The notes beneath the pieces are model-generated. The model saw only the letters and a list, made by a program, of their open reading frames with translations, ran no database searches and had not been told where the DNA came from. From contig DAOQWY010000016.1 of assembly GCA_035342335.1 (NCBI GenBank), forward strand, positions 11,711 through 75,710: a stretch of DNA of 64,000 nt, read 5' to 3'. The DNA is from Bacteroidales bacterium (GTDB lineage Bacteria > Bacteroidota > Bacteroidia > Bacteroidales > JAGONC01). Below, piece by piece: positions 3,599 through 62,415 of this stretch. The position numbers and the translations under genes are program-made. Positions within the stretch are counted from its first letter, which is position 1. Every line of letters starts with the position of its first letter.

Positions 3599-3618
3599 TT
3601 TTTCACAAAATCTTGCCA

Positions 3619-4227: not shown

Positions 4228-4252
4228 GGTTGTAATATCCAGGAATATATTC

Positions 4253-4260: not shown

Positions 4261-4280
4261 CAAACCTTTTCTAAAAAGGA

Positions 4281-4353: not shown

Positions 4354-4356
4354 CAA

Positions 4357-4396
4357 TAAAAAAAGAAGGCACCCGAACGGATGCCTTCTTTTTTTA
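4357..4396. terminator. Bidirectional rho-independent terminator between tRNA-Lys (+) and the 2741-aa gene (-)
   Basis: AAAAAAAGAAGGCA-cccgaacgga-TGCCTTCTTTTTTT: a 7-bp GC-containing stem flanked by an A-run and a T-run. It therefore reads as a terminator on both strands. Confidence 0.75.
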
Positions 4397-4408
4397 TTTT
4401 TTGCGGTC

Positions 4409-36524: not shown

Positions 36525-39368
36525 ATGTTGTTCGATTCACTGGAAAACCTTGATCCGCATGATTTTATCCTCATCAAGGGAGCACGGGTTCATAACCTGA
36601 AAAACCTCTCTGTTGCTCTTCCACGCAATAAGCTTATTGTCATAACGGGTCTCTCCGGTTCAGGCAAATCATCACTCGCCTTCGACACCCTCTACGCCGA
36701 TGGACAGCGACGCTATGTAGAAAGTCTGAGCTCCTACGCCCGGCAGTTTCTGGGCAGGATGAGCAAACCGGAGGTGGATTTCATCAGGGGGATCGCCCCG
36801 GCCATAGCCATCGAACAGAAAGTCAATAACCGGAATCCCCGCTCAACGGTTGGAACATCCACGGAAATCTATGAATACCTCAAGCTGTTGTATGCCCGTA
36901 TCGGAACAACGTTCTCCCCGGTTTCCGGCAACCAGGTCAAACGACATACGGTTACGGATGTCGTTGATCATGTTCAGACCCTTGAGCCTGGAACAAGGTT
37001 TTTGATCCAATGCCCGCTGATCATCAAAGCGAAGAGGACGCTCAAAGAACAGCTGTCTGTCTTATTGCAGCAGGGATTCAACAAGATTTCCATCCAGCAG
37101 GAAATGATCAGGATTGAAGATTTTCTTTCGGATTCCTACGCCGGGCCGGTGCCTGACACTTGCTACCTGGTGATCGACAGGATGGTATGCCAGCATGGTA
37201 AAGAAGATCTGCTGGCCCGCATTGCTGACTCGGCAGAGCTGGCATTCTATGAAGGGGATGGATGCTGCGTGGTGGAGTCCATCGGTGAAGATGAAAGGAA
37301 GGTGGTTGTTTTCACGAATCGTTTTGAGCTGGACGGAATGACGTTTGAAGAACCCAGCCCCAACCTGTTCAGTTTCAACAATCCCTATGGAGCCTGCAAA
37401 CGGTGCGAGGGATTCGGAAGCATCATCGGCATCGATGAGGACCTGGTCATTCCCAACAAGAGCCTGTCGGTTTATGAGGATGCCATTGCCTGCTGGAGGG
37501 GAGAAAAGATGAGTGAGTGGAAGGATGTTCTCGTGATGAATGCCTACCGGTTCGGATTCCCTATCTACAAACCCTTCTACGAGCTGACCGATGAACAGAA
37601 AGAACTCTTGTGGACAGGGAATGAATATTTCAGCGGTTTGAATGATTTTTTCAACTATGTGGAAGAACAGACCTACAAGATCCAGTACCGTGTCATGCTG
37701 AGCCGTTACCGGGGAAAGACGGTCTGCCCCGAGTGCAAGGGAACCCGGTTGAGGATGGATGCCAACTATGTGAAGGTTGGAGGAAAATCCATCTCGGATA
37801 CCGTATTGATGCCGGTGAGCCAGGCACTTTCCTTTTTCAGGAACCTGAAGCTCGCCTCAACCCACAGGGTTGCTGCAAACCGCCTGCTGACAGAGATCAC
37901 CAACCGGTTGCAATACCTGGAGGATGTGGGGCTTGGATACCTGACACTGAACCGCCTTGCCTCCAGTCTGTCAGGGGGGGAATCGCAGCGTATCAACCTG
38001 GCGACCTCGCTGGGCAGCAACCTGGTAGGCTCCATGTACATCCTGGACGAACCCAGCATCGGCCTGCATCCGCGTGACACCTATCGTTTGATACGCGTTC
38101 TGCTGCAACTGCGCGATCTTGGCAACACGGTGATCGTGGTGGAACATGATGAAGACATCATCCGCGCAGCGGACCAGATCATCGATATTGGCCCGATGGC
38201 CGGAAGCCACGGAGGTGAGCTCGTGTTTCAGGGTGATTACGATGAGCTCCTCCACGACAACAGCAGCCTCACCGGGCAATACCTTTCCCACAAGCAAATG
38301 ATCCCGTTGCCTGCGATCAGGAGAACGTGGAAAGATTTCATTGAGGTTTCCGGTGCCAGGGAACATAACCTGAAAGGTATTTCGGTCCGTTTTCCCTTGC
38401 AGGTATTTACCTGTGTTACCGGCGTCAGCGGGTCAGGAAAGACAACGCTGGTCAAAAAAATCCTCTTTGCAGCATTGAAGAAAATCCACGGCGGATATGC
38501 AGAAAAAACGGGCAAATTCGATAAACTTGACGGTGACATTCAGCGCATAGGAAACATTGAACTGGTGGACCAGAATCCCATCGGAAGATCCACGCGTTCC
38601 AATCCGGCCACGTACGTGAAAGCCTACGATGATATCCGCCAGTTGTTTGCTGATCAGCAACTGGCCAGGATCAGGGGATACAAACCCGGTTTCTTCTCGT
38701 TCAATGTCCCCGGTGGGCGCTGTGAAGAATGCGAGGGTGAAGGCACCGTAAAGATCGAAATGCAGTTCATGGCCGACATTTACCTGAAATGTGAGAGCTG
38801 TGATGGCAAACGGTTCCGCGAGGAAGTGCTGGATGTCAGGTACAGGGACAATACCATCAGTGACGTTCTGGATCTGACTGTTTCCCAGGCGATCCATCTC
38901 TTCGGAAGCCATAAAAAGAAAAATTCGATCGAAAGCAGGATCGTGGGCAAACTGCAACCACTTGAAGATGTCGGACTGGGTTATCTCAAGCTGGGGCAAT
39001 CTTCCAGCACGTTGAGCGGAGGCGAGGCGCAACGAACAAAACTGGCCTATTTCCTGGCAAAGGGAGCGACCGAAGTACCCACCTTTTTCATTTTTGATGA
39101 ACCCACCACCGGGCTTCACTTTCACGACATCCACAAACTTCTGGACGCATTTCACGCATTGATCGAACGCGGGCATACCATTCTGGTCATCGAACATAAC
39201 CTGGAGGTCATCAAATGTGCCGACTGGATCATTGACCTCGGGCCGGAGGGTGGCGATGAAGGCGGGACCGTTGTCTTCACGGGCACTCCGGAAGACATGG
39301 TTACTGCCAACGGAACCCATACAGCCCTTTATCTGCGGCAAAAACTTTCTCCTGAATCCATCCATTAA
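36525..39368 (+). CDS. uvrA: Excinuclease ABC subunit A
   Basis: 947-aa ORF with two ABC modules ([14 protein letters not shown]; [10 protein letters not shown]), zinc-finger Cys pairs (CKRCEGFG; CPECKGTR; CEECEGEG...CESCDG) and LSGGE signature motifs. Confidence 0.97.
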
Positions 39369-42782: not shown

Positions 42783-43430
42783 TCAAACCTGAATGATCCT
42801 GTACTCAACAGGACGGGGAACCCCCTTGAAGTCCTCAAGGTACTTACCGGAAACGAATTTCAGACAGCCCTGGTCCAGGGAAATCTTTTCTGAGGTGACA
42901 TCTTCCTGGACTTTTTGAAAAAATTTCTCGCTGATCACAATCCGGTACGGTTTGGCCTTCGACATCAGCCTTGCCGAAAGGTCCACGTCCTTTCCGTAAT
43001 AATCATTGTATCCTTCCAGAAAGGTCACATTGTACACCTCAGTACAATAATGTATGGCCACCTTACAGGGGAGAAAGAGATCTTCTACCGGAAAATTCTT
43101 TATGTTGTCGAGGGTTGCATAAATTTCCTCCAGTAACGCAAAGCACGTATGAAAGGTTGACTTGCGGTGAAGCTCCTGGTCAGGGATAAAAAGCATGATC
43201 TCGTCGCCGATTCCTTTGACAATGTTATCCGGGAAGTCGTTGAGAAGCGAGATGAAGTTAAACGTGTTGTTCAGTTTTTGCCCCCACCTGGTAAAGGGCT
43301 CACGGTATTTGATCCAGGTAGAGTCGACAATATCAATGAAAAGGCAAACTCCAGGGCATTTGGGCACGTCCTGAAGCACCCGTTCAATCCCGGCGGACCG
43401 GGGATCCTTGTCATGAATCCATTGAGCCAT
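42783..43430 (-). CDS. Stand-alone class III nucleotidyl-cyclase-like protein
   Basis: 215-aa ORF. Motifs are CLFIDIVDST (first metal Asp), KGIGDEIMLFIP (second metal Asp), and CKVAIHYCTEVYNV...YYGKDVDLSARLMSKAKPYRIVISEKF (the cyclase r.GihtG...yG..vn.AaRl...a....i.vSe pattern, with Asp in place of the usual Asn). It starts 3 bp after the STAS gene. Confidence 0.6.
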   Translation of the reverse strand: MAQWIHDKDPRSAGIERVLQDVPKCPGVCLFIDIVDSTWIKYREPFTRWGQKLNNTFNFISLLNDFPDNIVKGIGDEIMLFIPDQELHRKSTFHTCFALLEEIYATLDNIKNFPVEDLFLPCKVAIHYCTEVYNVTFLEGYNDYYGKDVDLSARLMSKAKPYRIVISEKFFQKVQEDVTSEKISLDQGCLKFVSGKYLEDFKGVPRPVEYRIIQV

Positions 43431-43433
43431 GCA

Positions 43434-43766
43434 TCAGAATTGTTTCAGGGCTTCCTCACGCGTGGGGTAAATTGAAAAAATGCTGGTGAATCCGGAAATC
43501 TCAAAAATCTCACGGATGTTTTCCTGCAGGCAGCAAAGGACGAACATTCCCTTGACGGAATTGATCTTTTTGAGGCCCATCAGCATGATCCGCAGCCCGG
43601 AACTGCTGATGTAGGACAAATCGTTGCAATCTACCAGAAGGTTATGCTGGTTGTCATCGATCAGCTTCATGATTTTCTCCTCAAGAAAACTGTAGTTGGT
43701 GGTGTCTAATCTGCCTTTCAGTTCAAGGATGATGACACCATCCTGTAAAATGTCGGTTATTTCCAT
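43434..43766 (-). CDS. STAS-domain anti-sigma-factor antagonist (RsbV/SpoIIAA-like)
   Basis: 110-aa ORF. LELKGRLDTTN...LLVDCNDLSYISSSGLRIML contains the conserved phosphorylatable Ser context. Confidence 0.85.
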   Translation of the reverse strand: MEITDILQDGVIILELKGRLDTTNYSFLEEKIMKLIDDNQHNLLVDCNDLSYISSSGLRIMLMGLKKINSVKGMFVLCCLQENIREIFEISGFTSIFSIYPTREEALKQF

Positions 43767-43771
43767 TGAAG

Positions 43772-44212
43772 TTATTGTTTGACTTGTTTCGATAAAAGCA
43801 GTCTGTTATGATTCCCGGCGCGCTCATAAGCATAGGTATCCATGATCTCACGAACGAAATGGATCCCCAGTCCTCCGATTTTTCTCTCCTCCGGCGATTT
43901 GTTCAGGTCACCGGGTACATCGACACTGAAGGGATCAAAAGCTTTACCATCATCTTCAATCTGCAGAAAAATCCAGTCGTTCCGGAGATACATCCGAATC
44001 ATGATATTATGGCCGAGATCGTCTTCAAACCCATAAAAGATAATATTGGTGATCAGTTCCTCCAGTACCAGGTTCAACGAAAAAATATCCCTGGAAGTCA
44101 GATCCCATGCCTCTCCCTGCTTCTCAACAAACGCACGTATCCTCTCAAGTTCCTGTATATCATTATGTATGATAAGATCAGCCGCTGTCATGATAGCCCA
44201 ATGATTCCGCAC
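43772..44212 (-). CDS. Anti-sigma regulatory factor-type Ser/Thr kinase (RsbW/SpoIIAB-like, HATPase_c)
   Basis: 146-aa ORF. The N box is LVLEELITNII. IEDDGKAFDP and GGLGIHFVREIMD follow. An alternative start is M8 at 44191. Confidence 0.8.
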   Translation of the reverse strand: MRNHWAIMTAADLIIHNDIQELERIRAFVEKQGEAWDLTSRDIFSLNLVLEELITNIIFYGFEDDLGHNIMIRMYLRNDWIFLQIEDDGKAFDPFSVDVPGDLNKSPEERKIGGLGIHFVREIMDTYAYERAGNHNRLLLSKQVKQ

Positions 44213-44390: not shown

Positions 44391-47300
44391 ATGAATGAGA
44401 GCAGAATACCCTTAAATCCCTTTCCAGGCATCCGCAGCTACGAAATAGAGGAAGACTTTCTATTCTTCGGAAGGGATCATCTTATCAGGGAATTGGTCAC
44501 CATGTTGTCTGACACGCATTTTATTGCACTCACCGGGGCTTCCGGAAGCGGGAAATCTTCCCTGATCAAAGCAGGTCTGATCCCCGCACTGGTGAAGCAA
44601 ACGGCCGGTGAAGACACCGGCCGGTGGGAATATGCCATTTTCAGGCCCGGGGATGATCCTATCGGACAAATGGCTGATGCATTGTTTACAACGGTGAGAA
44701 AAGGGACAGGGAATGAAAGTCCTTACAAAGAAGCACAAGAGATTGAGAAGATCCTGCGCTCGGGCAGGGAAGGGTTCGTTGACGTATTTGAAAAGATGCA
44801 CACATTTTTTCGAAACAGTAACCTGCTTCTTGTCATTGATCAGTTTGAGGAGTTGTTCCGGTTCAAAAGCAATTTCACGGATTCAGTTGTCACTGCTGAC
44901 GCTGACCATTTGGTTGAATTGTTACTTTATGCGCTGGAACAGAAGGGTTTTCCGGTCTACGTCATCCTGTCGCTCCGGTCCGATTTCATTGACCGGTGCA
45001 CAGATTACCCGGGTCTGACAGAAAAGATCAACCACGGATATTACCTGATCCCCCGAATGACCCGGGAGGATATCCGCCAGGCCATAACCGGTCCTGTCGG
45101 CGTGGGTGGTGCACAGATATCCGAAAAGCTTGTCGGCCGTTTGCTGGAAGAGGTCAGCACTGAACCAGACCAACTTCCCATCCTGCAGCACGCGCTGATG
45201 AGGACCTGGGAAAAATGGCTCCAGAAACGCACCAGTGAGCCCGTGATCGATGAACATCATTACGAATCCATCGGGACGATGCAGGATGCCCTATCGCTTC
45301 ATGCCGAGGAGATCTTCCTGTCAATGAGTGATGCAAGGCAGCAGGTTCTGGCGGAAAAACTCTTCAAGGCGCTGGTGGTGGTGGGAGAAGACAACAGGGG
45401 CACACGCAGGCCGACACAGCTGGGGGAAATATGCAGCATTGCCGGCGTCAAATCCCAGGAGGTCATTGAGGTGGTCGAAAGCTTCCGCAGTCCTGGCCGA
45501 TCGTTCCTGATGCCACCCCCGGGAGTCTCCTTAAATGAGGACTCGATCATCGACATCACCCACGAGAGCCTGATGCGCATCTGGAAAAGGCTCCGGGTGT
45601 GGGTTGAAGAGGAGACTCAGTCAGCTCAGCTCTATCAGCGGCTTTCCAAGTCCGCCGAACTTTACCAGCAGGGCAAAACAGGGCTCTGGGTGGATCCTGA
45701 GCTGCACCTTGCCGTTAAATGGAAAGAGAACATCAAGCCGAACCAGGCATGGGCCAGCCGGTACGATCCTGCTTTCGACAGGGCCATCCAGTTTCTGAAC
45801 TACAGCCAGAAAGAAGCGGAGCTGGCCGTTGCACGCAAAGAGGAACACCAGAAAAGAGAGCTTGCCAGAGCCAGACGGTTCGCCATCATCCTTGGCCTGG
45901 CCTCGGTCGTTTCCATCTTCTTCCTGATCATATCCATCAATCTCACTTTCAAAGCAGAAGCCAGCGAGCGAAAAGCACAGGAGAAAGAAAAACTGGCCAT
46001 GCTTGAAAACCTTAAAGCTGCCGCACAGCGAAAGGAGGCCATCATACAGCGGAGAATTTCAGAACAACAGCAGCAGATAGCCGAACAACAGAAGATCATC
46101 ACCGAAGAGCAGAAAGAATTTGCCATTCAGCAACAGCAAATTGCGTTCAGTGAGCGTAAGGAGGCCATCCTTCAGAAACAGCTTGCCGAGGAAGCCAGAA
46201 ATGAAGCGGTACTTGCCCGGGACTATGCACAGGAACAGGGCAAGATCGCACTGGAACAAAAAGGGATCGCCGAGTCGGAAAGAGCCAAAGCCGAAGTTTC
46301 GGAAAGGAATGCCAGGAGACTTCGATTGCTTGCAGTGGCAAATGCCATGGCGATTAAATCGGTCGAAATTCAAAAAAGCGTAAAGGGTGATCTTCCTGCC
46401 TTACTGGCTCTTCAGGCTTATCGTCTGAACCGGCAGAATGAAGGATCACAGCAGGATCCGGATATTTTCAAAGCGTTGTCGGGTGTCAGTAAAGGCGATG
46501 CCATGCTCTGGATCCATCAGAATGAAGTGCGTTCAGTTATCGTCGGCAATAAAAGCGGAATCTTGTATTCCTGCAGCCTGGATGGTACGGTGAAGATCAC
46601 GGATACGGGCAAACCAGGCGAGCCTGTCCGTACCCTGAGCACGGAAGAGAAGGACCGTGACGAGTATTTCTCACTGGCCCTGAGTACCGATGAACGCTTT
46701 CTTGCTGCGGGAACCTATCACGGGAAGATCCTTCTGTGGGATCTGAATGACCAGGATGGGATGCCTTTCGTGCTGAACGGGCATACGTTCATTGTCACGC
46801 ACCTCAGCTTCAATCCCGTGAGCGGGGAGCTGGCCTCTTCCAGTGCCGACGGGAGCATCCGCATCTGGGATCCAATGCATGCCAACGATCCCGGACGGGT
46901 GATCGATCAGACCTTTTCAAGAATGACGGTCGTCTGTTACTCCCCGGATGGAAATGAATTGTCGTGGGCCAATGAGAAAGGAGAGATCAAGATAATGAAT
47001 CTCAAAAGCATGGCTGCTATCCCGGTCGTCATCCAGCAGGCAGGCGCAGCAGTCTATTCCATGGCTTTCAGTAATGAGGGAGACCTGCTCGCCTGCGGAG
47101 ACGGCAGCGGATCGATCCTGTTATGGAAGTCAATCCAGCCATCTGGCTCACCGGTTTCCCTGATCGGACATCTGTCCCGTGTCAGCGGTCTTAAATTCAG
47201 TCCCGACGGCACGACACTGGGAAGCTGCAGCTACGATGGCACGGTCAGGCTGTGGAACTACCTGTCGGCCGAGGAACCTCCCATCGTGATGGATGACTAT

Positions 47301-47513
47301 GATTTCTGGATCACCTGCCTGGCCTTCACGGCCGGTGGTGATAAACTGATCACGGGCAGCGCAGATAAAACGATCAGGATGAGGTTAATCAACACGGAAG
47401 TGCTTACACGTCTTTTATGTGCCGATCTTTCAAGGAACATGACCCAGGAGGAATGGAATCTTTATGTCGGGCCTGACATCGGTTATTCCAAAACCTGCGA
47501 AAATCTTCCTTAA
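44391..47513 (+). CDS. STAND-type P-loop NTPase - single TM - coiled coil - WD40 beta-propeller protein
   Basis: 1040-aa ORF. NPFPGIRSYEIEEDFLFFGRD precedes Walker A GASGSGKSS and Walker B LLLVIDQFEELF. The hydrophobic segment is FAIILGLASVVSIFFLIISINLTF (~residue 505). A Q/E/K-rich coiled coil of ~150 aa follows. About 7 WD repeats are present (SADGSIRIWD, SYDGTVRLWN, SADKTIRM). The C-terminus is SRNMTQEEWNLYVGPDIGYSKTC. Confidence 0.75.
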   Translation: MNESRIPLNPFPGIRSYEIEEDFLFFGRDHLIRELVTMLSDTHFIALTGASGSGKSSLIKAGLIPALVKQTAGEDTGRWEYAIFRPGDDPIGQMADALFTTVRKGTGNESPYKEAQEIEKILRSGREGFVDVFEKMHTFFRNSNLLLVIDQFEELFRFKSNFTDSVVTADADHLVELLLYALEQKGFPVYVILSLRSDFIDRCTDYPGLTEKINHGYYLIPRMTREDIRQAITGPVGVGGAQISEKLVGRLLEEVSTEPDQLPILQHALMRTWEKWLQKRTSEPVIDEHHYESIGTMQDALSLHAEEIFLSMSDARQQVLAEKLFKALVVVGEDNRGTRRPTQLGEICSIAGVKSQEVIEVVESFRSPGRSFLMPPPGVSLNEDSIIDITHESLMRIWKRLRVWVEEETQSAQLYQRLSKSAELYQQGKTGLWVDPELHLAVKWKENIKPNQAWASRYDPAFDRAIQFLNYSQKEAELAVARKEEHQKRELARARRFAIILGLASVVSIFFLIISINLTFKAEASERKAQEKEKLAMLENLKAAAQRKEAIIQRRISEQQQQIAEQQKIITEEQKEFAIQQQQIAFSERKEAILQKQLAEEARNEAVLARDYAQEQGKIALEQKGIAESERAKAEVSERNARRLRLLAVANAMAIKSVEIQKSVKGDLPALLALQAYRLNRQNEGSQQDPDIFKALSGVSKGDAMLWIHQNEVRSVIVGNKSGILYSCSLDGTVKITDTGKPGEPVRTLSTEEKDRDEYFSLALSTDERFLAAGTYHGKILLWDLNDQDGMPFVLNGHTFIVTHLSFNPVSGELASSSADGSIRIWDPMHANDPGRVIDQTFSRMTVVCYSPDGNELSWANEKGEIKIMNLKSMAAIPVVIQQAGAAVYSMAFSNEGDLLACGDGSGSILLWKSIQPSGSPVSLIGHLSRVSGLKFSPDGTTLGSCSYDGTVRLWNYLSAEEPPIVMDDYDFWITCLAFTAGGDKLITGSADKTIRMRLINTEVLTRLLCADLSRNMTQEEWNLYVGPDIGYSKTCENLP

Positions 47514-47553
47514 GGCAACCTTATTTTTCAGGTATCCACGATATGAATGTCGA

Positions 47554-50130
47554 ATGAAACTGATCAAACCATTTACCACCCTGCTCATTCTTCTGGGGTG
47601 CCTGGCCCAGGCCTTTCCCCAGACCGATTGCGGAGAAGCTGCACTGACCGAGGCCAGGAAAAAATATGAATCCGGTAACTTTGAACTGGTCATCTCAATG
47701 CTGACCGGGTGTGCAGTCAGCATGCCTGACAACCAGCAAAAGGCGGAAGCTTACCGGTTGCTCACCCTTTCGTACCTGGCCATGGATTCCATCAGCACCG
47801 CCACCGAGTGTGCCACCCAGCTGCTGAAAATAAATCCAAACTTTGAACCGGACCTGTTCGATCTTCCACGATTCATACAGCTGATCCACAGGCTCAACGA
47901 AGCAACGCGGGTCCAGCAGGTCACCTCTGTCTCCAAGCGTGCTGAAAACATCTATGAAGCACCTGCCAACATCCTGGTCGTTACCCGGGAAGAGATCGAA
48001 CAGCGGGGATACATGGATCTGGTGGAAATGTTGCGCGATGTCCCGGGCTTTGACCTGACCATGTTTTACGGATCGCAGTATGCCAACATCTACCAGAGGG
48101 GATTCCGGCAGAACAACACCGAAAAAACGCTCGTTCTGATCGATGGCATCGAGGATAATGACCTGTGGACAAACTGGGCGGATATTTCCCGGCAGTATCC
48201 CCTATCGAATATTGAAAGAGTGGAAATCATTTACGGGCCGGCCTCCACCATGTACGGGCCAAATGCCTTTGCAGGGGTGATCAACATCGTTACCCAGGAC
48301 GCCGCTGCGATCATCAAGGAGGATCGCAAACTGGGCATCCGCGCCAATGCAGGGTACGGGTCGTATCGTTCAGCCTGCGCGGATCTATCGGTCTCCGCCC
48401 GAAAGAATAAATTCAGCAGTTCATTCACCGGCCGGTTCTACCAGTCAGATGAAATGGATCTTTCCGCCCAGCCCTATTTCGACTATGACCCTGCCGTTTA
48501 CGACACTGTTGATTACGTTCAGCTTCTCAGTGTTTCGGATCACGCAAGGGAGTATCTGTCAGACAATGAATTACCGGTAAATCATCCCTACTATGACGTG
48601 AGTCCTGATTCGTCAGCCATCACGCTCACCCCTGCCGGTGCCCAGGCAGCCAGGGACCTGGATAAGACAGGGTATGCACAGACCGTGAACGGGAATCCGG
48701 TTGGTTTCACCAATGAGACCCATTGCTGGTTCGTCAACGGAAAACTTCAGTTCAGCAATTTCACCCTCGGATTTCAGTCGTGGAAAAAAAGTGAAGGATC
48801 CACCACACAGTACACCGACCTTCTCGTACCGGGCTCGGAAAACGGTTTTATCTGGGCTCCCCAGCTTTCTTACATCTACACGAAGTATGAAGAACAGATC
48901 AGTAAACGCTTGTATGTATACAGTCTGACCAACTACCGTATCCATTCCCTGACCGAGGATTCCAAATACGTTTCTGTCAAGAACTACTCCCTGGGAAACT
49001 ATGACCTTGCCAGCCTGGTTGGGGCGACAGAACCTGAATGGACCACCCTGTACGCTTATGAAAGTTCCAGGCAGCTCCGTACCGAATTAAAACTGATCTG
49101 GGATCCCCTTCAGCAACTCAGCGTAGTCTCCGGGATCGAGGTCAGAAACAGTTCCCTGCAGGGCAGTTACCTCTACAGTACGTATCCCCATCCGCAGGAT
49201 TCAGCTGTTCTTAATCCTTCGCCCAAAGGAGGAAATACCTATAATACCTGGGACGTGGGCATCTACGCCCAGGCTACCTATACGCTGTTTGAAGACCTCA
49301 GGCTGACCCTGGGAGCCCGCTATGACTATAATAAAATCCGCTCAAGCGGCGGATTTGGATCAGAAATAAGCCCTCGAATAGCGATCGTTTACACCCCGGG
49401 ATCTTTTGTCTTTAAAGCCATTTACTCAAGGGGTATCGAAAATGTATCCAACTGGACCAAATTCTCATCCGCAGGGAACCGTCTACCCAATCCAACGCTG
49501 GGTACGGAAAGCATACGGAACTACGAGGTAACAGGAGCGTGGATGATCCGGAAGGAATTCGTTGTTGATGTCGCTTTCTATCATTCGATCATAGAAGATG
49601 TCGTCGGAACGGTAACGGTACCTGACCAGCCCGGCAAGAACCAGAATGCCAACATAGGTGTTTTCAGGATCAATGGTTTTCAGTCGAACCTGACCTACCG
49701 GACCAGGACCTTCTCGGCATATGCAAATTATACCTTTACAGATCCCCGGCAGACCTACAGTGAGCTTGGGGAAGTGGACAATTTGATCGGTGACATTTCA
49801 AAGCACAAGTTCAACGTAGGAGCCAACAAAACTTTCTTTGAAGACCTGCAGGTGAACCTGAGGCTGAATTATACCGGCAAGAGAGAAACCGGAGCCGGAA
49901 CGACGGTACCTTTGAACTGGAATACGTTTCCAGCCGTCGTTCTGCTCAATGGAGCCGTCACGTACAGGAACGACCTGGTTCCAGGCCTGAATGTCCAGCT
50001 GGTTTGCAATAATGTACTCGGCAAGACCTATTATCATCCAGGTACCAAGGCTGCTGATGGCGTGCTCAGCCCGACGGACATCCTGCAAAGAGGGAGGCAC
50101 TGGGTGATCCGGTTGTTATTTGAGTGGTAA
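47554..50130 (+). CDS. TonB-dependent receptor with an N-terminal TPR-like extension
   Basis: The signal peptide is MKLIKPFTTLLILLGCLAQA. A ~110-aa TPR-like helical segment follows. The plug domain is ENIYEAPANILVVTREEIEQRGYMDLVEMLRDVPGF...IERVEIIYGPASTMYGPNAFAGVINIVT. The barrel has a terminal aromatic residue (LLFEW). The start was moved to the ATG at 47554. Confidence 0.75.
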   Translation: MKLIKPFTTLLILLGCLAQAFPQTDCGEAALTEARKKYESGNFELVISMLTGCAVSMPDNQQKAEAYRLLTLSYLAMDSISTATECATQLLKINPNFEPDLFDLPRFIQLIHRLNEATRVQQVTSVSKRAENIYEAPANILVVTREEIEQRGYMDLVEMLRDVPGFDLTMFYGSQYANIYQRGFRQNNTEKTLVLIDGIEDNDLWTNWADISRQYPLSNIERVEIIYGPASTMYGPNAFAGVINIVTQDAAAIIKEDRKLGIRANAGYGSYRSACADLSVSARKNKFSSSFTGRFYQSDEMDLSAQPYFDYDPAVYDTVDYVQLLSVSDHAREYLSDNELPVNHPYYDVSPDSSAITLTPAGAQAARDLDKTGYAQTVNGNPVGFTNETHCWFVNGKLQFSNFTLGFQSWKKSEGSTTQYTDLLVPGSENGFIWAPQLSYIYTKYEEQISKRLYVYSLTNYRIHSLTEDSKYVSVKNYSLGNYDLASLVGATEPEWTTLYAYESSRQLRTELKLIWDPLQQLSVVSGIEVRNSSLQGSYLYSTYPHPQDSAVLNPSPKGGNTYNTWDVGIYAQATYTLFEDLRLTLGARYDYNKIRSSGGFGSEISPRIAIVYTPGSFVFKAIYSRGIENVSNWTKFSSAGNRLPNPTLGTESIRNYEVTGAWMIRKEFVVDVAFYHSIIEDVVGTVTVPDQPGKNQNANIGVFRINGFQSNLTYRTRTFSAYANYTFTDPRQTYSELGEVDNLIGDISKHKFNVGANKTFFEDLQVNLRLNYTGKRETGAGTTVPLNWNTFPAVVLLNGAVTYRNDLVPGLNVQLVCNNVLGKTYYHPGTKAADGVLSPTDILQRGRHWVIRLLFEW

Positions 50131-50179
50131 GGACCAAAATTGTTAAATTGTCAAATTGTTAAGCTGAGGTTGTACGAAA

Positions 50180-51049
50180 GTGGGTAAAGCAGTATATACG
50201 ACGATACGGGACGGGGCGTCGGAGTGGGGAGAGCTGATCCTGCCGGCTGAACCAAGAGCGCGGCGGGGGGGATTGCGTACCGTCATGTTTGGAAGCACCA
50301 CCGCAGGTCATCTTGTGCTGGAAACACTTCTGCGCTTCGACAGGAGCCATCCGGGCAAAATGGATATCAGGGCAGTGGCAACGGATGACACGCACGATCC
50401 GAGAGCCAGGATCGGTCTCCGGAAACGTATTTGGAAACATTATTCACCCGAAGAGCGTCTGCGGCTAATGGACAGGATGATCCAGGGGACCGTATCGGAA
50501 GGCATTCCGTGCTATACCGGCGGAGTGAAAAATGATTACTTCGCCGGATTGCTCAGGGAGTGGGACCCGGAGCTGATCATCATGTGCTGTTTTGGCCAGA
50601 AAATAAACCGTTCCATCTACGACTACCCGGTATTTGGTATGTATAATTTTCATCCGTCGGACCTCGCAGCCAACATCGGTGCCGGCGCTCGCCCGTTCGA
50701 ATCCACGATCCGCGAGGGCAGGACCACTTCCTGCATGATCCTCCACCGTGTCACCGAACGTATCGACGGCGGTCCCATCGTTGGCATTTCACCCCGGATC
50801 AATATCGCCCTTGCCAACGACAGCTACCCGGATAATTTTTTGGTACTGCAGGAAAAAATACCGTCTGCCTGTGGATGGATGACCTACGGGCTGCTCTTAT
50901 CCGTTCTGGAGCGGAAGGAGCGTGGTGAGACCGAGGCCGTCGCATCCATCGACTTTGACAGGATCATTCCGGAACCGGTGAAGCAAATGCTGATGGAACC
51001 GGTGGAAAATGATCCTTTGAAAATTAAAAAATTACCGTTCCCCGAGTGA
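50180..51049 (+). CDS. Formyltransferase-family protein (Fmt/PurN-like N-terminal domain), atypical
   Basis: 289-aa ORF with a GTG start. ELIIMCCFGQKI...GMYNFHPSDL...ARPFESTIREGRTTSCMILHRVTERIDGGPIVG keeps the N-x-H...D catalytic spacing, but the usual SLLPxxRG loop is replaced. Confidence 0.55.
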   Translation: MGKAVYTTIRDGASEWGELILPAEPRARRGGLRTVMFGSTTAGHLVLETLLRFDRSHPGKMDIRAVATDDTHDPRARIGLRKRIWKHYSPEERLRLMDRMIQGTVSEGIPCYTGGVKNDYFAGLLREWDPELIIMCCFGQKINRSIYDYPVFGMYNFHPSDLAANIGAGARPFESTIREGRTTSCMILHRVTERIDGGPIVGISPRINIALANDSYPDNFLVLQEKIPSACGWMTYGLLLSVLERKERGETEAVASIDFDRIIPEPVKQMLMEPVENDPLKIKKLPFPE

Positions 51050-54000
51050 GGGACTTCCTCGCACCGGTGAATGAAATGAGATCAAAGACACACCTGATGA
51101 CCCCGGGAAAAACAATCAGCCGTGGCACAAGCCAGCAATCAGCACAATGGATCTTCAGACTGCTGAACATTCGCCAGGGTGAAGGAAAGCCCGTTGTTTT
51201 GCTGATCCTGTTTTCCTTCTTTATGGGCATGGCCCTGTCGTACTACTTTACGGCCTCCAATGCGATATTCATCAAGCATTTTGAGCCCAGGATGATCTCG
51301 CTGTCCTACATTGTTTCGGGCATCGCTGTCTACCTCACCTGGCTCCTGCTGACACAGATCGATAAGCGACTCCCCCTCAGCCTGAGGTTCATCGTCAAAT
51401 ATATCTTCGTTGTCGTCTCAGTGGTTGCCATCAGCATCGGAACCTGGCTCCAGGACTCGGATGTGATGGCATTCATCCTTTTCACCTTTGTCAGGGTGCT
51501 GGTTTATATCACCCTCATCACCTTCTGGGGGCTGGCAGGATCGCTGTTCAACCTACGGCAGGGTAAAAGGATCTTTGGACTGATCGGGACGGGTGAATCC
51601 ATTTCGGTCATCCTGGGTTACTTTTCAGTTCCTCTCCTTCTGCAGTTTGTTGAAACGCCATTTCTGCTCTTCTTATCATCGTTTGCATTCCTGATGTGCT
51701 TCATCGTCGTGCTGGTCATCCTGAGAAATTACAGGGAACAGCTGGGATTTGCGCCGGCCAGGCCGGAACGGGAGGTAAAGGATGAATCAGGCAGGTGGAA
51801 ATATACTGCCCTGCTGAAACAGCCCTACTTCCTGCTCATTTCCCTGCTGGCCCTGTTGCCGATATTCGGATATCTGTTCGTGGATTATATGTTCCTCCAT
51901 CAAACTAAGTACGAGTTCAACAACGACCGGGAGACGATCGCCAGGTTCCTGGGCTATATGCTGGGGTTTGTGGCCGTGGTGGAGCTTGTCTTCAAAATCT
52001 TTGTCTCGGGCCGTCTGCTCAGCAAATATGGCCTCAAACCCAGCCTTGTATCTCTGCCGGCCGCCCTGCTGATCAGTACATCGATGGCCGTTCTGTTTGG
52101 AGCCATTTACGGACCGACCGGCATCTTCTTCACCTTCATTGTCTTCTCACGGCTCCTGGAACGATCGGTGCGTGTTGCCATCTATGAACCTGCTTTTCAG
52201 CTTCTGTACCAGCCTATCCCGCAGGAGCAACGGCTTGCCTTTCAAAGCCAGATCGAAGGCATCCCCAAAGCGCTTGGCACCATCCTTACCGGTGCCCTCC
52301 TTCTGGTGTTTGCCGGCATAGTCCCCATGACGCTGGTGTATTATAACATCTTTTTCCTGATCATCCTTCTGCTCTGGATCTATTATGCTGCAAAGATGTA
52401 CCGTACATACCGCCACAGGATCAGGGAGGTTCTCACTCAGGGAAAAATGATTTCCCCTGAGAAACTTTCTTCTTACATAAATACCTTTATATCAAATATT
52501 TATGAAAAAATCCTGCAACAGGATACCCATCGTTTCCGCAAGCTGTTCCGCCTGATTGAAAAGACGGATCCCTTAATGACCGACAGGGTGATCAAGGATT
52601 TGTTGAACCAGGCTCCTGATCCTTTGAAAAAGGAGATCATTCCATTTGTCGAACAAAAGCAGATCATTTCAGCAAAAGAGACGCTGAAGGTCTTAAAGGC
52701 CGACGTTGCTCAGAAGGATCTGCAACCGATGCTGGAAAGCACCCTTTCCGAACTTCAGCTTGCAGAGAACTACCCGGTTGATCTGTTATCCAATCTTGCC
52801 CGTTCAAAAGATCCTGAGGAAAGGGAGGTGTCGGCCAGGCTGCTGGCAGCTTCGCCACGCTATCAGACGATCAGGATCTTATCCGAATTACTGCGGGATC
52901 CCCACCCGGATGTCCGTAAAGCAGCCCTGGTTTCGGCAGGCAAGATAAAAAGGGTGGAACTCTGGCCCGGGATCCTGGATAACCTGAGCCAGAGAGCATT
53001 TCTGCCCACAGCTTTTTCGGCCCTGAAAACGATCGGGGAACCGGTAACCGACCAGTTGGAGGACCTTTTCCGAAAAACAGGTACAAGCAGGGAAACACAG
53101 GTGCTGATCATAAAACTGTACCACGACATCGGTGGTGAAAAGGCCATCAGACATCTGCGCACCAGGATCAATTTTCCGGATATGGATATCCGAATGCACG
53201 CGCTTCTGGCACTGAGCAAGCTGAACTACCAGGCGGACCACCACGAGCAGACCCTGATCAAGCAAACCATCGAGACCAACATTGAAATCATGGTCTGGAT
53301 CATGGCCGGGATCGTGGACCTGGAACCCGAGGTTCGCGCCCGGCATCTTCTGGATGCGCTGCGGGCCGAACTCACTGAAAAGAAGGAACACATCTTCCTG
53401 CTTCTGTCGCTGATCTACGATGCCAGAACCATCCGCCTGATACGCGAAAACATAGAAAGCGGCAACAACCAGGCAAAAATCTTCGCCATGGAGATCAGCG
53501 ATATGATGGTTGCAGCAGACATCAAGGAACTGTTGCTGCCCTTGTTCGACGACCTGTCGGCCAGGGAGAGGCTGGCCATGTTCAAAAACCGCTTCCCCCA
53601 GGAAAAACTGACCTGTTTGGAGCGTTTCTGCGACATCATCAACAAGGATTATAACCTGATCAGAAGCTGGACGAAGGCGTGCGCGGTTGAATTACTGATC
53701 CACTTTGACGTCAGGGAGGTTTCGGAGATCCTTTGCGCCAATATGGTCAATCCCTCCCGGATGATTCGCGAAACTGCCGCCTGGGTGCTGCATGCCATGG
53801 ATCCGGACCTGTTCTTTGATGTGATAGCTGTACAACGTCCGGACGTCAAGCAACAACTGGAAGCGATCACCAGAAAGATCGGGATGCTGAAGCCTTTCAG
53901 GGATAAACTGCTGATCACTGAAAAAACGGAAGCACTCAAAAATTCAGGCTTTTTTACCGGGATCCCTGATCCTGTGCTGGCCGACCTTGCGATGACGGCA

Positions 54001-54288
54001 GAGGATGTGACACTGGAAACCGGTCAATCCCTGCCGGAGCACGATGATGGCGGAGCATATTTTTGCCTGGTGCTTTCCGGTCAGGTCATAAAACGGGAAA
54101 ACAAGACATTGGAAGTAATCTTTGGACAGGGGCAGGTATTGATCAGGGAACCGGATCCATCATCACGGACCCGTGTTCATTATTCAGCAAAGGAGGATTG
54201 CCTGCTGCTGCTGATCGCTATGGATCTGATCATTGACCTGATGAGGGATTATCCGGTTTTCACCGGAAAATTGCTGGAATGGTATTAG
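51046..54288 (+). CDS. Fusion protein: ~12-TM MFS/TLC-like transporter domain + HEAT-like repeats + C-terminal cyclic-nucleotide-binding-like domain
   Basis: 1080-aa ORF. Its GTG overlaps the previous stop (GTGA); an alternative start is the ATG at 51076. Residues ~40-440 are polytopic. The middle has HEAT-like units (LLRDPHPDVRKAALVSAGKI). The last ~130 aa resemble a CAP-effector beta-roll (FFTGIPDPVLADLAMTAEDVTLETGQSL...GAYFCLVLSGQV...IFGQGQVL). Confidence 0.6.
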   Translation: MRDFLAPVNEMRSKTHLMTPGKTISRGTSQQSAQWIFRLLNIRQGEGKPVVLLILFSFFMGMALSYYFTASNAIFIKHFEPRMISLSYIVSGIAVYLTWLLLTQIDKRLPLSLRFIVKYIFVVVSVVAISIGTWLQDSDVMAFILFTFVRVLVYITLITFWGLAGSLFNLRQGKRIFGLIGTGESISVILGYFSVPLLLQFVETPFLLFLSSFAFLMCFIVVLVILRNYREQLGFAPARPEREVKDESGRWKYTALLKQPYFLLISLLALLPIFGYLFVDYMFLHQTKYEFNNDRETIARFLGYMLGFVAVVELVFKIFVSGRLLSKYGLKPSLVSLPAALLISTSMAVLFGAIYGPTGIFFTFIVFSRLLERSVRVAIYEPAFQLLYQPIPQEQRLAFQSQIEGIPKALGTILTGALLLVFAGIVPMTLVYYNIFFLIILLLWIYYAAKMYRTYRHRIREVLTQGKMISPEKLSSYINTFISNIYEKILQQDTHRFRKLFRLIEKTDPLMTDRVIKDLLNQAPDPLKKEIIPFVEQKQIISAKETLKVLKADVAQKDLQPMLESTLSELQLAENYPVDLLSNLARSKDPEEREVSARLLAASPRYQTIRILSELLRDPHPDVRKAALVSAGKIKRVELWPGILDNLSQRAFLPTAFSALKTIGEPVTDQLEDLFRKTGTSRETQVLIIKLYHDIGGEKAIRHLRTRINFPDMDIRMHALLALSKLNYQADHHEQTLIKQTIETNIEIMVWIMAGIVDLEPEVRARHLLDALRAELTEKKEHIFLLLSLIYDARTIRLIRENIESGNNQAKIFAMEISDMMVAADIKELLLPLFDDLSARERLAMFKNRFPQEKLTCLERFCDIINKDYNLIRSWTKACAVELLIHFDVREVSEILCANMVNPSRMIRETAAWVLHAMDPDLFFDVIAVQRPDVKQQLEAITRKIGMLKPFRDKLLITEKTEALKNSGFFTGIPDPVLADLAMTAEDVTLETGQSLPEHDDGGAYFCLVLSGQVIKRENKTLEVIFGQGQVLIREPDPSSRTRVHYSAKEDCLLLLIAMDLIIDLMRDYPVFTGKLLEWY

Positions 54289-54324
54289 AATGATAATCGT
54301 CAACGACATAAAAAGGAGCATCCC

Positions 54325-57300
54325 ATGAAGATACGGATGATGCAAAAAGTGATCGCCACACTCTTTTTCCTGACCACTGCCTGGGGATTCCAGGCGGGTA
54401 ACCTGTGCAGGGGACAGGAAGTTGGCAATCCTTTTATCAAAAATCTGGGGCCGGAAACATACAATGCACATTCCCAGAATTTTACAGTAGCCCAGGACAA
54501 GAGAGGGGTCATGTATTTTGGTAACTTTTCCGGGATCCTCGAATACGACGGGGACCAGTGGCGACTCATCCCAACTGAAAACATTTCCAGGGTTTCATCC
54601 CTTTCCATCGCTGCCAACGGTATCGTTTACGTCGGGGCAAGAGGTGAAATGGGCTACCTGTCACCCGATCCTTCCGGGAATATGGCATTCGTATCCCTGA
54701 ACGACCTGATCCCATCGGACTACAGAAATTTTCTGGATGTCCTGGGAACGTATGCCACCTCAAAAGGAGTATATTTTGTAACGGAACAGTTCATTTTCTT
54801 TTATGATTTTGACTTCATTCAAGTGACGGAGGTTGACGGAGGGGTCCTGTCCTCGCAGTGCATCCATGATACCCTTTATTGCTGGGTCGAAAACAAAGGA
54901 TTGGTCAAGTACGGCCACGGGCATCCGGAGCTGTTGGTCGACCGGCATTCCGGTGATGGCATCCTGGAAATCAGAGTCCTGATCACGGTGAACGACACGA
55001 CGTTCCTGCTGGGGACCGCCGGTCAGGGGCTTTTCTGGCTGAGAGGACGCGATGTCGAAGGATTCAGAACGAATGCAGGCACTGATCTCACCGGGATCCA
55101 GTTCAGGTGTGGAGTTCAGTTGCAGGATGGCACCTTTGCATTCGGAACAGAGAGGAATGGGATCATCATCGTGGAACCCGGCGGGAACATCCGGCAGGTG
55201 ATCAATGCAAAAAACGGCCTCAGGAACGATAATGTCGCATTCCTATACAAAGGCAGAGAGGGAAATCTCTGGGCTGCACTGAACAATGGTCTTGCCCTGA
55301 TCGCCATCCCATCACCCATTTCCTATTTCGTTGAACAAAGAGGGATCAGTGGCGGTGTGACTGATATAACCCGGATAAATTCGACACTTTTTGTTTCCAC
55401 TTATCAGGGTTTGTTCCATTACGACATGCCCGATCACACATTTAAATCTGTTTCCGGGATCACCACCGGATGCTGGGCGATCCTCCCTGACGATGATGGC
55501 CTGCTGGCCGCCACCAGCAAAGGAGTATACCAGGTCAGGGGACTCCGTCCGGTCCTGATCACAGAAGGGTCATCCTATGCACTTTGCAGGTCAGCGTTCA
55601 ATCCATCCATTCTCTATGCAGGACAAACCGGGAGCATGCTGGTTATGGAAAAAACAACGGGTCAATGGAAAACCAGAAGCACGGTCACCGGAATTAACGG
55701 CGAAATCATGGAAATCGCCGAGGAAAAGGACGGATCGGTATGGATGAATACCCCGTTGAGTGGCCTCTACCTTTACCGGCCAGCCGCATCAGCCCTGATC
55801 CAGCGATACGACACCACCAGCGGGCTTCCGTTCATGACCGGTAATCATCTCAGCAAGCTGACTTCCGGAATCCAACTGAACACCCGTCAGGGACTCTATC
55901 GGTACAATCCTGAAAGCAAGGCATTTGAAGTATTTCAACTCTTCCCTGAAGACAGCATCAACCGGAATATCTGGCTGAAGTCGACCGTTGAGGATCATCA
56001 GGGCAATCTATGGACCACCAACGGGGATGACAAAGGCATAACCTTTTACAGGAGGAACCAGGGTATCCTTTCCGAAAAGGTCACCACCCCGTATCGCCCC
56101 CTGAATGATCTGGTGGTATGGAACATTTACACCGAAAAAAACGGCATTGTCTGGTTCGGGGGACCCGACGGATTGTTTCGGTACGATCCCTCCGTTCACA
56201 CGCACCACGACGTGGATTTCCAAACGCTGATCCGGCAAGTGACCATCAAGGGGGATTCAACGGTCTTCCGGGGAACGTTTTATGACCGGGATGGCATCAC
56301 TGCCGGCCAGCCAGGTGAATATCCTCCGATGGCCATCGACTATGCGCACAATTCCATTCTGTTTGAATATGCCTCTGTCAGCATGCATGTCAGGGGAGAA
56401 AATGAATACCAGTACATCCTGGAAGGATTTGACAAAGGCTGGTCAGAATGGAGGAATGAAAACACCAAGGAATACACCAACCTGCCAAAAGGGGACTATG
56501 TATTCCGTGTACGATCAAAAAATGCTTACGACCGGATAAGCAATGACGCCGTATTCTCATTCCGGATCCTGACTCCGTGGTACAGGTTATGGTGGGCATA
56601 CCTGCTTTACGCATTGATCCTCGGCGGGATCGTCTACCTGATCGTCCGTCTGCGGTCACGTAAATTACTGAAGGAAAAGCAGGCGCTGGAAGAGGTCATC
56701 CAGGAGAGGACCACCGAGGTGGTCAGGCAAAAAGAAGAGATCGAGCACAAATCCCTGGAGCTGTCCGAAAAGAACTACGAGCTGGAGAGGATCAATAAGA
56801 CTGTCAAGTCAATCAACGAAGAAATCCACGTTGCACGTCTGACAGAATCAGTACTTGAAAAAATGAGCGCCATACCGGGAGTTGAAAGAGCTCTTGCCCT
56901 TGTCAGAGATCAGTCAGCACAGATCTTCAGGTACAAGGCTGGTTTTCAATGGGATACATCTGAGCTGGAAAACATTCAGTACGAGCTGGAGGAGGCCGAG
57001 GAGCGTTATTTGAAAAATGCCCTGGAAGTCCACGAGGATATTTTCGTCAAATCAGACCCGGTGAATCTGGCAGAAGCCCCTGAATTTAAACAGACAGGCC
57101 CACCCCGGTCGATGATCATTCTGGTTATCAAGGTTGAAGAAAAGGTCGAAGGCATGCTGTTATTCATGAATATGACCAGGGAAAATGCATTTGACATGCG
57201 TGACCTCGGATTCCTTAAGAATTCCAAGGAACATATCATCTCCGCATTCATCAAGTCCAGGATCCTGGAGGATCTTCAGCATACGCTCGAGAACCTGAAA

Positions 57301-58104: not shown

Positions 58105-58122
58105 TCACGAAGTGAAGAAGAA

Positions 58123-58749: not shown

Positions 58750-58841
58750 TAAAGGAGGAACCATAGTCAATTTAATGGATCGAAATTGCTATATTTGGAA
58801 AGTCATAACAGAATCACTTACCCGTAAACCAAAAGAACCAT

Positions 58842-60020: not shown

Positions 60021-60035
60021 AATCCCTGAAAGACC

Positions 60036-62400: not shown

Positions 62401-62415
62401 TCGAAAGGCACGACC

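Follow-up and report, generated by a model that had tools for sequence, protein, structure and literature searches.

The gene at positions 44391-47513 (+) of a 64,000-nucleotide stretch from a Bacteroidales bacterium (GenBank assembly GCA_035342335.1, contig DAOQWY010000016.1, positions 11,711 to 75,710 of the forward strand; the whole stretch is called the window below) was found to encode a 1040-residue protein in which a STAND nucleoside triphosphatase (NTPase) of the nSTAND1 family is joined to a WD40 propeller through a single transmembrane (TM) helix and a long alpha-helical stalk. The domain anatomy, conservation and synteny of this gene are observed, and from them we draw the tentative proposal, held with slightly less than even confidence, that the protein may be a single-pass inner-membrane nSTAND1 receptor, a STAND switch that reaches across the envelope and keeps watch on the outer-membrane protein with which it is paired. 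The parts of the gene are as follows, with their main support in brackets.

44391-47513 (+): nSTAND1-TM-stalk-WD40 gene, a 1040-residue open reading frame (ORF) starting with ATG (Pfam; full-length orthologues; full-length AlphaFold2 model from a 75-sequence alignment, mean predicted local distance difference test score, pLDDT, 83.7)
44418-45674 (+): predicted cytoplasmic nSTAND1 NTPase module, residues 10-428 (PF20703; invariant motifs; AlphaFold2; Foldseek)
45675-45878 (+): juxtamembrane linker, residues 429-496, continuous with the TM helix from residue 462, with an Arg/Lys-rich flank before that helix
45879-45941 (+): predicted single TM helix, residues 497-517 (hydropathy, conservation, charge asymmetry)
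45942-46370 (+): predicted periplasmic alpha-helical stalk, residues 518-660, with 18 unbroken heptads and an Ala/Gln seam
46371-47510 (+): helical cap (661-700), WD40 propeller (~701-1010) and conserved C-terminal tail (1011-1040) (Pfam, AlphaFold2, Foldseek)

Pfam analysis of the 1040-residue protein assigned residues 10-428 to nSTAND1 (PF20703) over profile positions 1-374 of 379, with an E-value of 4.7e-93 and 313.3 bits against a cut-off of 27.1. No domain lies N-terminal to the NTPase, as the profile begins at residue 10 and the orthologues begin at the same point. The Walker A (GASGSGKSS, G49-S57) and Walker B (LLLVIDQFEE, with D150, E153 and E154) motifs are both intact, and residues G49, G52, G54, K55, S56, D150, E153 and E154 are invariant in the 75-sequence alignment; the motifs cited by an earlier, sequence-only reading of this DNA were all found in this ORF. 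Residues 1-470 modelled alone with AlphaFold2 gave a pLDDT of 90 and a predicted template-modelling score of 0.86, and Foldseek matched the NTPase model to Cdc6/Orc1, to the archaeal AAA+ proteins SSO1545 and PAB2304 and to Apaf-1 (E 3e-8 to 1e-6) with low template-modelling scores of 0.35-0.5; as modelled, the module has the STAND/AAA+ fold, and no solved structure is closely related to it. When the NTPase sequence was searched against the PDB, only UvrA P-loop matches came back, and the NCBIfam scan of the 1040-residue protein gave P-loop-level noise only. The features that define STAND proteins (Leipe et al. 2004), namely a P-loop nucleotide-binding domain, helical and winged-helix domains and C-terminal WD40 repeats, were all recovered by AlphaFold2, Foldseek and Pfam. 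Elsewhere in the window, a UvrA-like protein (36525-39368) obtained 27.4 bits against nSTAND1 (threshold 27.1) through its P-loop only, and therefore weak PF20703 matches can be false.

To describe the membrane segment and the gene neighbourhoods, we used the best 80 of at least 593 genome relatives, all full-length, 71 of which had room for neighbour counts. The hydrophobic segment AIILGLASVVSIFFLIISI (about residues 497-517) showed a Kyte-Doolittle 19-residue mean (KD19) of 2.8, with values of 2.0-3.3 across orthologues; it lies at the same place in 120 of the 120 listed homologues and is 21 residues long in 79 of the 80 genome loci, and the linker before it measures 68 residues in 78 of the 80 orthologues. 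The mean net charge over the 80 orthologues was +5.1 in the 15 residues before the TM helix vs +0.2 in the 15 residues after it, and no N-terminal signal peptide was found in the 1040-residue protein. In the AlphaFold2 model, the hydrophobic segment is held within one unbroken helix of 199 residues (462-660). The charge pattern is of the positive-inside kind and therefore argues for a cytoplasmic NTPase and for a periplasmic stalk and propeller; this topology, to which hydropathy, charge bias, the modelled helix and the nature of the partner gene all contribute, is the most likely one.

Pro is absent from the stalk (residues 518-660, 143 residues), and Gly occurs in it twice. Of the 18 positions that recur every seven residues between 522 and 641, 16 are Ala and the remaining two are Ser and Thr; the period-7 power was matched in 1 of 20,000 shuffles. 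The heptad Ala and the Gln three residues on are invariant or nearly so in 75 homologues, with hydrophobic residues flanking the Ala on one or the other of its sides. The length of region 518-669 in the 80 orthologues falls into classes of 135/136, 142/143, 151/152 and 159 residues, which indicates that insertions and deletions come in whole heptads. A straight helix of 143 residues would be ~21 nm long, and the essentially invariant lengths of the linker and the TM helix (68 and 21 residues) fit a putative mechanical coupling.

Beyond the stalk, Pfam WD40 and beta-propeller models cover residues ~705-1005, and AlphaFold2 built this region as 28 strands in seven blades with a pLDDT of about 90. 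Foldseek matched the full model to full-length Apaf-1 (3sfz, E 7e-22) and to the seven-bladed WD40 domain of Thermomonospora curvata (5yzv, target template-modelling score 0.92). Majority-fraction conservation was 0.70-0.80 in the NTPase, linker, TM helix and stalk vs 0.51 in the propeller, the lowest value in the protein. A Cys pair in the C-terminal tail was considered as a marker of a periplasmic disulfide and rejected, as it is not conserved in the 75-sequence alignment. The sequence-only reading had proposed a STAND NTPase with a WD40 propeller, which the full-length PF20703 match, the Pfam WD40 models and the structural comparisons bear out, and it had placed between them a TM helix and a long coiled coil, where a hydrophobic helix (KD19 2.8) and a Pro-free heptad helix of 143 residues are indeed present. 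Its suggestion that the NTPase and the propeller sit on opposite sides of the membrane gains support from the charge bias (+5.1 vs +0.2) and from an outer-membrane partner with a Cys-Cys periplasmic domain, as described next.

ORFs were called in the 80 genome loci and clustered, and the recurrent clusters were annotated. Two layouts were found:

Type A (this window, about 20 genome loci, Runella rosea): NTPase, TonB-dependent receptor, ~280-residue transferase (formyltransferase-like here, GNAT in Runella), ~1080-residue MFS-HEAT protein, Reg_prop/Y_Y_Y histidine kinase
Type B (about 50 loci): MFS-HEAT protein, (HAMP-PP2C), (TIR_2+DUF4062, ~480 residues, soluble), NTPase, OMP_b-brl_2 barrel (~360 residues), SBBP-like propeller lipoprotein (~420 residues), often a ~2400-residue type IX secretion system (T9SS) cargo

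The gene for an outer-membrane beta-barrel lies directly downstream of the NTPase gene in 67 of the 71 loci, with 48 OMP_b-brl_2 barrels and 19 TonB-dependent receptors. In this window the partner and its distinctive domain are:

47554-50130 (+): TonB-dependent receptor with a signal peptide (Plug and TonB_dep_Rec_b-barrel), in which a family-specific N-terminal extension (NTE) precedes the Plug
47623-47907 (+): NTE, a ~95-residue helical TPR-like domain between signal peptide and Plug

The receptor most likely starts at the ATG at 47554 (MKLIKPFTTLLILLGCLAQAFPQ...), 40 nt past the NTPase stop; a start at 47464, with an apparent 50-nt overlap, was rejected as an artefact of the ORF caller. The NTE has four invariant positions, two of which are Cys residues 27 residues apart, and no Pfam match was obtained for it even at E<=1. 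It is common to two unrelated kinds of barrel, the TonB-dependent receptors and the OMP_b-brl_2 proteins (also at 13122-13409 of locus L016), and in the loci examined it was found only adjoining the NTPase gene. In a reverse test, metagenome contigs were searched with patterns from a 10-sequence NTE alignment and confirmed loci with at least 1.5 kb upstream were counted; an NTPase orthologue ended directly upstream in 33 of these 34 loci, all of them from type A relatives (NTE identity 42-69%), and the exception was a weak match of 33% identity. A protein homologue search with the 107-residue N-terminal domain of the receptor alone returned nothing, probably owing to the word-index limit of the search, since homologues exist. 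The comparison of type A with type B, in which the barrel changes and the NTE is kept, is a stronger argument for the partnership than the reverse test.

The protein homologue search with the full protein returned 7994 matches; nearly all of the best 120 are 1020-1070 residues long, with 99-100% query coverage and 44-83% identity, and come mostly from Bacteroidales or from metagenome-assembled genomes of Bacteroidota, the nearest named source being Lentimicrobiaceae. A scan of one genome per GTDB species found full-length orthologues in at least 593 species-level genomes, the best 80 of which span Bacteroidales, Cytophagales, Chitinophagales, Sphingobacteriales, Saprospiraceae and some Acidobacteriota; cultured carriers include Sediminibacterium goheungense, Larkinella humicola, Fulvivirga kasyanovii, Mucilaginibacter galii and Runella rosea. 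When the 272-residue linker-TM-stalk module was used as the query, 449 clusters (50% identity, E<=1e-10) were found among 1.84 billion representatives, and nearly all full-length matches were 1000-1090 residues long with the module at about 415-700. The identical protein is present on 13 public contigs. The family is thus large, length-invariant and routine in occurrence, and it has no known role, its database names being 'hypothetical' or 'WD40 repeat protein'. The idea that a Bacteroidota genome would seldom have such an architecture was therefore wrong; the sequence-only reading had also allowed for a routine family with a known housekeeping role, and of this only the routine occurrence held.

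When plasmids were searched with tblastn, nSTAND1 relatives of 25-45% identity turned up in 182 records, most of them from Streptomyces and cyanobacteria, and nine distant nSTAND1 proteins were inspected (four from Streptomyces, two from Nostoc, and one each from Stanieria, Caballeronia and Tolypothrix). Eight of the nine carry one strongly hydrophobic segment (KD19 1.9-2.5) located 410-510 residues past the NTPase start, usually after a run of Arg; the trypsin-fused protein of Tolypothrix is the one without it. The TM helix had been regarded as a peculiarity of this gene, and that claim falls: as judged from the nine distant proteins sampled, the internal TM helix is a general nSTAND1 trait across phyla. 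The distant proteins have only 15-40 residues between the TM helix and the cap that precedes the WD40 repeats, and therefore the long heptad stalk appears specific to the Bacteroidota-centred clade. On a plasmid of Streptomyces sp. NBC_00053 (locus L085, coding sequence 3197-6241), the nSTAND1 TM helix is followed by a solute-binding-protein domain, with no WD40 repeats; since solute-binding domains work outside the cytoplasm, this protein lends support to a sensor that faces outwards in the nSTAND1 family. Membrane-spanning nSTAND1 proteins with varied outside sensors may thus be widespread and unremarked. The paper that defined nSTAND1 makes no mention of a TM helix (Kaur, Iyer, Burroughs and Aravind 2021, PMC8195603), and the literature searched yielded no paper describing an nSTAND1 TM helix and no description of the STAND-TM-stalk-WD40 architecture or of its gene cluster. 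The nSTAND1 family is known; the architecture of this clade and its outer-membrane partner appear to be undescribed in that literature.

From sequence and synteny we infer the topology, the contact between propeller and NTE, the direction of signalling and the output of the proposed switch. The NTPase (residues 10-428) would lie in the cytoplasm, and a continuous helix would run from its C-terminal region across the membrane (497-517) into a rigid stalk of 143 residues, long enough to approach the outer membrane and ending in the helical cap and the seven-bladed WD40 propeller in the periplasm. The propeller would dock on, or monitor, the ~95-residue Cys-Cys N-terminal domain of the neighbouring outer-membrane barrel, which here is a TonB-dependent receptor. 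Ligand occupancy or perturbation of the barrel would be relayed through the helix of invariant length to the STAND module, and nucleotide-dependent STAND oligomerisation would then act on cytoplasmic partners. In most relatives the cytoplasmic partner would be a soluble TIR+DUF4062 protein; in the subtype of this window, the products of the MFS-HEAT, the STAS/RsbW-like/PP2C partner-switching and the histidine-kinase genes are candidate outputs. A device coupling the outer membrane to a STAND module is suggested because the rigid stalk is length-quantised, the linker and the TM helix are invariant in length, and the outer-membrane barrel with its private Cys-Cys domain is near-obligate.

Several points weigh against this model. 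Gene adjacency is the sole link between the propeller and the NTE, and many of the loci compared for synteny share their ancestry, above all those of the reverse test, which is confined to type A relatives and is not independent of descent. The TonB-box and plug region of the receptor looks normal by eye, and the receptor may simply be a transporter. The AlphaFold2 monomer has a pLDDT below 50 at residues 525-580 of the stalk, whose Ala/Gln seam is weakly hydrophobic, and the oligomeric state cannot be read from this seam. A folded propeller of 35 kDa would need to cross, or to sit within, the peptidoglycan mesh, and the outputs named for the subtype of this window are candidates only. In Apaf-1-type STANDs, the sensor repeats fold back on the NTPase and autoinhibit it; a membrane between sensor and NTPase rules this out, and we know of no other coupling mechanism.

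Rather unlikely in our estimate, and the likeliest of the alternatives, is that the protein is a classical STAND sensor of immunity or conflict, whose periplasmic propeller would sense a cue from an invader (a toxin, or a phage that adsorbs or injects at the receptor) and whose NTPase would trigger an abortive response, the TIR effector having been lost or swapped in the copy of this window. The nSTAND1 family was defined in conflict systems (PMC8195603), and a TIR_2+DUF4062 gene, encoding a protein with no TM segment, lies directly upstream of the NTPase gene in 39 of the 71 loci, its stop mostly falling 28-70 nt before the NTPase match begins. A TIR gene also adjoins the Caballeronia nSTAND1 relative, and DUF4062 has recently been reported as a TIR-like NADase in antiphage defence (bioRxiv 10.64898/2026.05.01.722283). 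The propeller, moreover, is the least conserved part of the protein, and one relative adjoins genes of a contractile injection system: in Sediminibacterium goheungense (locus L015, 835-9970), genes for a tape-measure protein of such a system, for an AAA ATPase and for a protein with TrkA_N/RyR domains lie directly upstream of the TIR-NTPase-receptor cluster. Against this, no TIR_DUF4062 homologue was found anywhere in the window, and no PADLOC model fits any cluster protein: with PADLOC-DB 2.0, the NTPase protein gave only a P-loop-level match to mad3 (E 2e-4), and nothing meaningful was obtained for the other cluster proteins or for the TIR_DUF4062, MFS-HEAT, outer-membrane barrel and lipoprotein partners. 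Neither mobile nor defence genes were found in the window, the context being core-chromosomal; the partners are transport and signalling genes; and the uniform length and cross-order synteny of the family are unlike the patchy, shuffled architectures that are typical of defence STANDs. The physical mechanism proposed for the outer-membrane monitor would also suit an immune sensor of this kind.

Ten ORFs on the + strand, from 44391 to 63354, follow one another in this window with gaps of at most 92 nt. Besides the NTPase and receptor genes, these are the + strand genes listed here, after which the divergent genes upstream are given:

50180-51049 (+): formyltransferase-like protein, 289 residues (Formyl_trans_N, E 1e-7; weak Fmt/ArnA matches)
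51046-54288 (+): MFS-HEAT protein, 1080 residues (MFS_1 and HEAT_2), with ~10-12 TM helices, HEAT repeats and ~450 residues without a family match
54325-58104 (+): sensor histidine kinase with Reg_prop/Y_Y_Y periplasmic propellers (Pfam)
58123-63354 (+): 208-residue secreted protein, response regulator-PP2C (SpoIIE), ABC substrate-binding protein, STAS protein and permease (Pfam)
42783-44212 (-): divergent genes of partner-switching type, comprising an RsbW-like kinase (43772-44212), a STAS anti-sigma antagonist (43434-43766) and a cyclase-homology protein (42783-43430) (Pfam)

The gene thus does head a co-directional cluster of ~20 kb, as the sequence-only reading had stated. The conflict or defence setting that it evoked was not found: the window is not a defence island, and the neighbours are the signalling and transport genes listed above and, in the rest of the window, the core genes uvrA, recA, nth, feoB, rmlD and znuABC. 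Its description of the protein as effector-less holds for the polypeptide and for the window; in the family, however, a separate TIR_2+DUF4062 gene occurs upstream in the 39 loci mentioned.

The MFS-HEAT protein is the most widely conserved partner outside the outer membrane, being present in 60 of the 80 loci and in both layouts; a cyclic-nucleotide-binding domain considered at its C-terminus was dropped for want of Pfam support. The formyltransferase-like gene is kept at its position in eight genome loci and many metagenome loci, with a GNAT gene instead in Runella, and the histidine-kinase gene follows the MFS-HEAT gene in type A loci (15-16 loci). Genes of the PP2C, STAS and RsbW-like types turn up repeatedly in type A and type B alike. 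Upstream of the NTPase gene, one or both of the STAS and RsbW-like types are also present in L001, L008, L011, L048 and Runella, and the divergent STAS/RsbW-like arrangement is the same on a public contig with the identical protein. The last four genes of the cluster (PP2C, ABC substrate-binding protein, STAS and permease) are found in L002, L005 and L031 as well, where they adjoin the NTPase gene but are read from the other strand. No ECF sigma factor or FecR family member was detected among the cluster and window ORFs scanned. A scan for promoters and terminators gave counts equal to those of shuffled sequence, Bacteroidota promoters being outside its coverage.

Some further observations concern individual genes. 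The 208-residue protein (58123-58749) has a signal peptide and by eye resembles a small outer-membrane beta-barrel; it gave no Pfam or NCBIfam family match and no homologue in the 80 related loci. The ORF at 61153-62400, between the ABC substrate-binding and permease genes, combines a STAS domain with ~300 residues without a Pfam match. The cyclase-homology protein (42783-43430, -; 215 residues) showed a weak adenylate/guanylate cyclase match (E 3e-6), and among the genome loci its gene is kept only in the closest relative, L001. Farther away on the - strand, two giant ORFs of 2741 and 3218 residues (4409-12634 and 12806-22462) combine repeats of the InlB B-repeat-like kind with a T9SS sorting domain at the C-terminus, the 3218-residue one additionally having dockerin, fn3 and YDG domains. 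In about 20 type B loci (L020, 15333-22244), the barrel and lipoprotein genes are followed by that of a T9SS cargo of ~2300-2600 residues with Ig-like and filamin-like repeats. The possibility that this ~2400-residue downstream protein was the T9SS translocon SprA was rejected, since its Ig-like repeats and Por_Secre_tail mark it as cargo of that system.

The conserved order of receptor, transferase and MFS-HEAT genes in type A suggests another alternative, in which the protein would belong to a transport machine that spans the envelope, as a structural or gating component: the outer-membrane receptor, the stalk protein and the inner-membrane MFS-HEAT protein would move a substrate modified by the formyl- or acetyltransferase, with the NTPase as a gate or assembly factor. 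A single TM helix followed by a long periplasmic helix is also a trait of tripartite-pump adaptors and of TolA and TonB, and the MFS-HEAT protein is the most conserved partner. However, type B loci have a small OMP_b-brl_2 barrel instead, an unlikely transporter, STAND NTPases are switches and not motors, the receptor appears by eye to keep its own TonB-box region, and the TIR, PP2C, STAS and kinase neighbours point to signalling; we regard a transport machine as decidedly improbable. That the gene is a decaying remnant of a TIR-linked system, functionless in this genome, is suggested by the absence from the window of the TIR_2+DUF4062 gene found in most relatives, and it is very hard to reconcile with an intact ORF that keeps all family-invariant residues, with the conservation of the TIR-less type A layout itself (in about 20 loci from genomes and over 30 from metagenomes) and with the 13 public contigs that carry the identical protein. 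Finally, a wholly cytoplasmic, Apaf-1-like protein, whose hydrophobic segment would not span the membrane and whose propeller would fold back on the NTPase, has in its favour that full-length Apaf-1 is the top structural match and that autoinhibition by sensor repeats is the known STAND mechanism, and is scarcely credible given a KD19 of 2.0-3.3 across the 21-residue segment in all orthologues, the strong asymmetry of flanking charge, the location of the segment within a continuous 199-residue helix and not in a globular core, the recurrence across phyla of the TM feature with preceding Arg runs, and a partner gene whose product is an outer-membrane protein.

STAND and NLR proteins are understood as cytoplasmic sensors whose repeats touch the NTPase; here a membrane and a helix of ~20 nm would intervene. 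If the proposed coupling is true, it would constitute a new route for signalling from the outer membrane to the cytoplasm in Bacteroidota, and it would raise the question of how a single TM helix switches a STAND NTPase. The presence of a TM helix in nSTAND1 proteins in general shifts where the sensors of this family should be expected to act. In its boldest form, which we consider unlikely and put forward as a speculation, the protein would be the first STAND/NLR-type receptor working across the envelope, in which a periplasmic WD40 propeller, held out by a stalk that acts as a ruler, stands guard over an outer-membrane protein of its own, and phage attack, outer-membrane damage or the binding of a ligand to that protein leads to STAND oligomerisation in the cytoplasm, with output through a TIR/DUF4062 NADase in type B and through a partner-switching stress pathway in type A. 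The existence of cultured carriers renders the hypothesis testable.

When compared with the nSTAND1 conflict NTPases (PF20703, PMC8195603), the protein shares with them the full-length NTPase profile, the C-terminal WD40 repeats and, in many relatives, an adjacent TIR gene, and like the nSTAND1 proteins of Streptomyces, Nostoc, Stanieria and Caballeronia it has a single TM helix after the NTPase. Unlike those conflict systems, it has no fused effector or adaptor domain and no adjacent effector gene in the window; its architecture is uniform and its setting core-chromosomal, and it is accompanied by a near-obligate outer-membrane barrel with a private N-terminal domain and by MFS-HEAT and partner-switching genes. 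This clade has a heptad stalk of 130-150 residues, in contrast with the 15-40 residues of the distant nSTAND1 proteins. With the antiviral STANDs (Avs, bNACHT) and the DUF4062/TIR NADase defence system Swarozyc, it has in common a STAND switch with C-terminal sensor repeats, the TIR_2+DUF4062 protein of type B being a candidate effector. It differs from them in having no PADLOC match, in an effector that is a separate gene and is absent from the window, and in a sensor predicted to be extracytoplasmic.

The resemblance to Apaf-1 and to the NLR and STAND-WD40 proteins lies in the order of a P-loop nucleotide-binding domain, a helical domain, a winged helix and a seven-bladed WD40 propeller, 3sfz being the best Foldseek match. 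However, identity to Apaf-1 is 12-14%, there is no CARD, and the sensor and the NTPase are parted by the membrane and the ~20-nm helix, and therefore fold-back autoinhibition as in Apaf-1 would be impossible. Outside the STAND class, mycobacterial PknD is a receptor kinase with an extracytoplasmic beta-propeller, and TolA, TonB and the adaptors of tripartite pumps have periplasm-spanning helices. It shares with these a layout in which one TM helix joins a cytoplasmic domain, for signalling or for energy supply, to an outside propeller or a long helix, and the closest WD40 structure found with Foldseek was the actinobacterial domain 5yzv. Unlike PknD, TolA and TonB, its cytoplasmic module is a STAND NTPase and not a kinase or a motor-coupled anchor, and no sequence relationship to them was found.

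Finally, the locus can be compared with the FecA-FecR-FecI system, in which a receptor with an extra domain before the plug likewise stands beside a single-pass inner-membrane protein with cytoplasmic signalling and periplasmic domains. The extension of the receptor differs from that of FecA in having no Pfam match and no detected signalling domain of the known (STN) type; the inner-membrane partner is a STAND NTPase of 1040 residues and not FecR, with no extracytoplasmic-function (ECF) sigma or FecR gene in the cluster; and in type B the barrel is no receptor at all. In function, the nearest analogy is the cell-surface signalling of TonB-dependent transducers, one in which a STAND NTPase would replace the anti-sigma factor and the new domain of the outer-membrane partner would replace the signalling domain.

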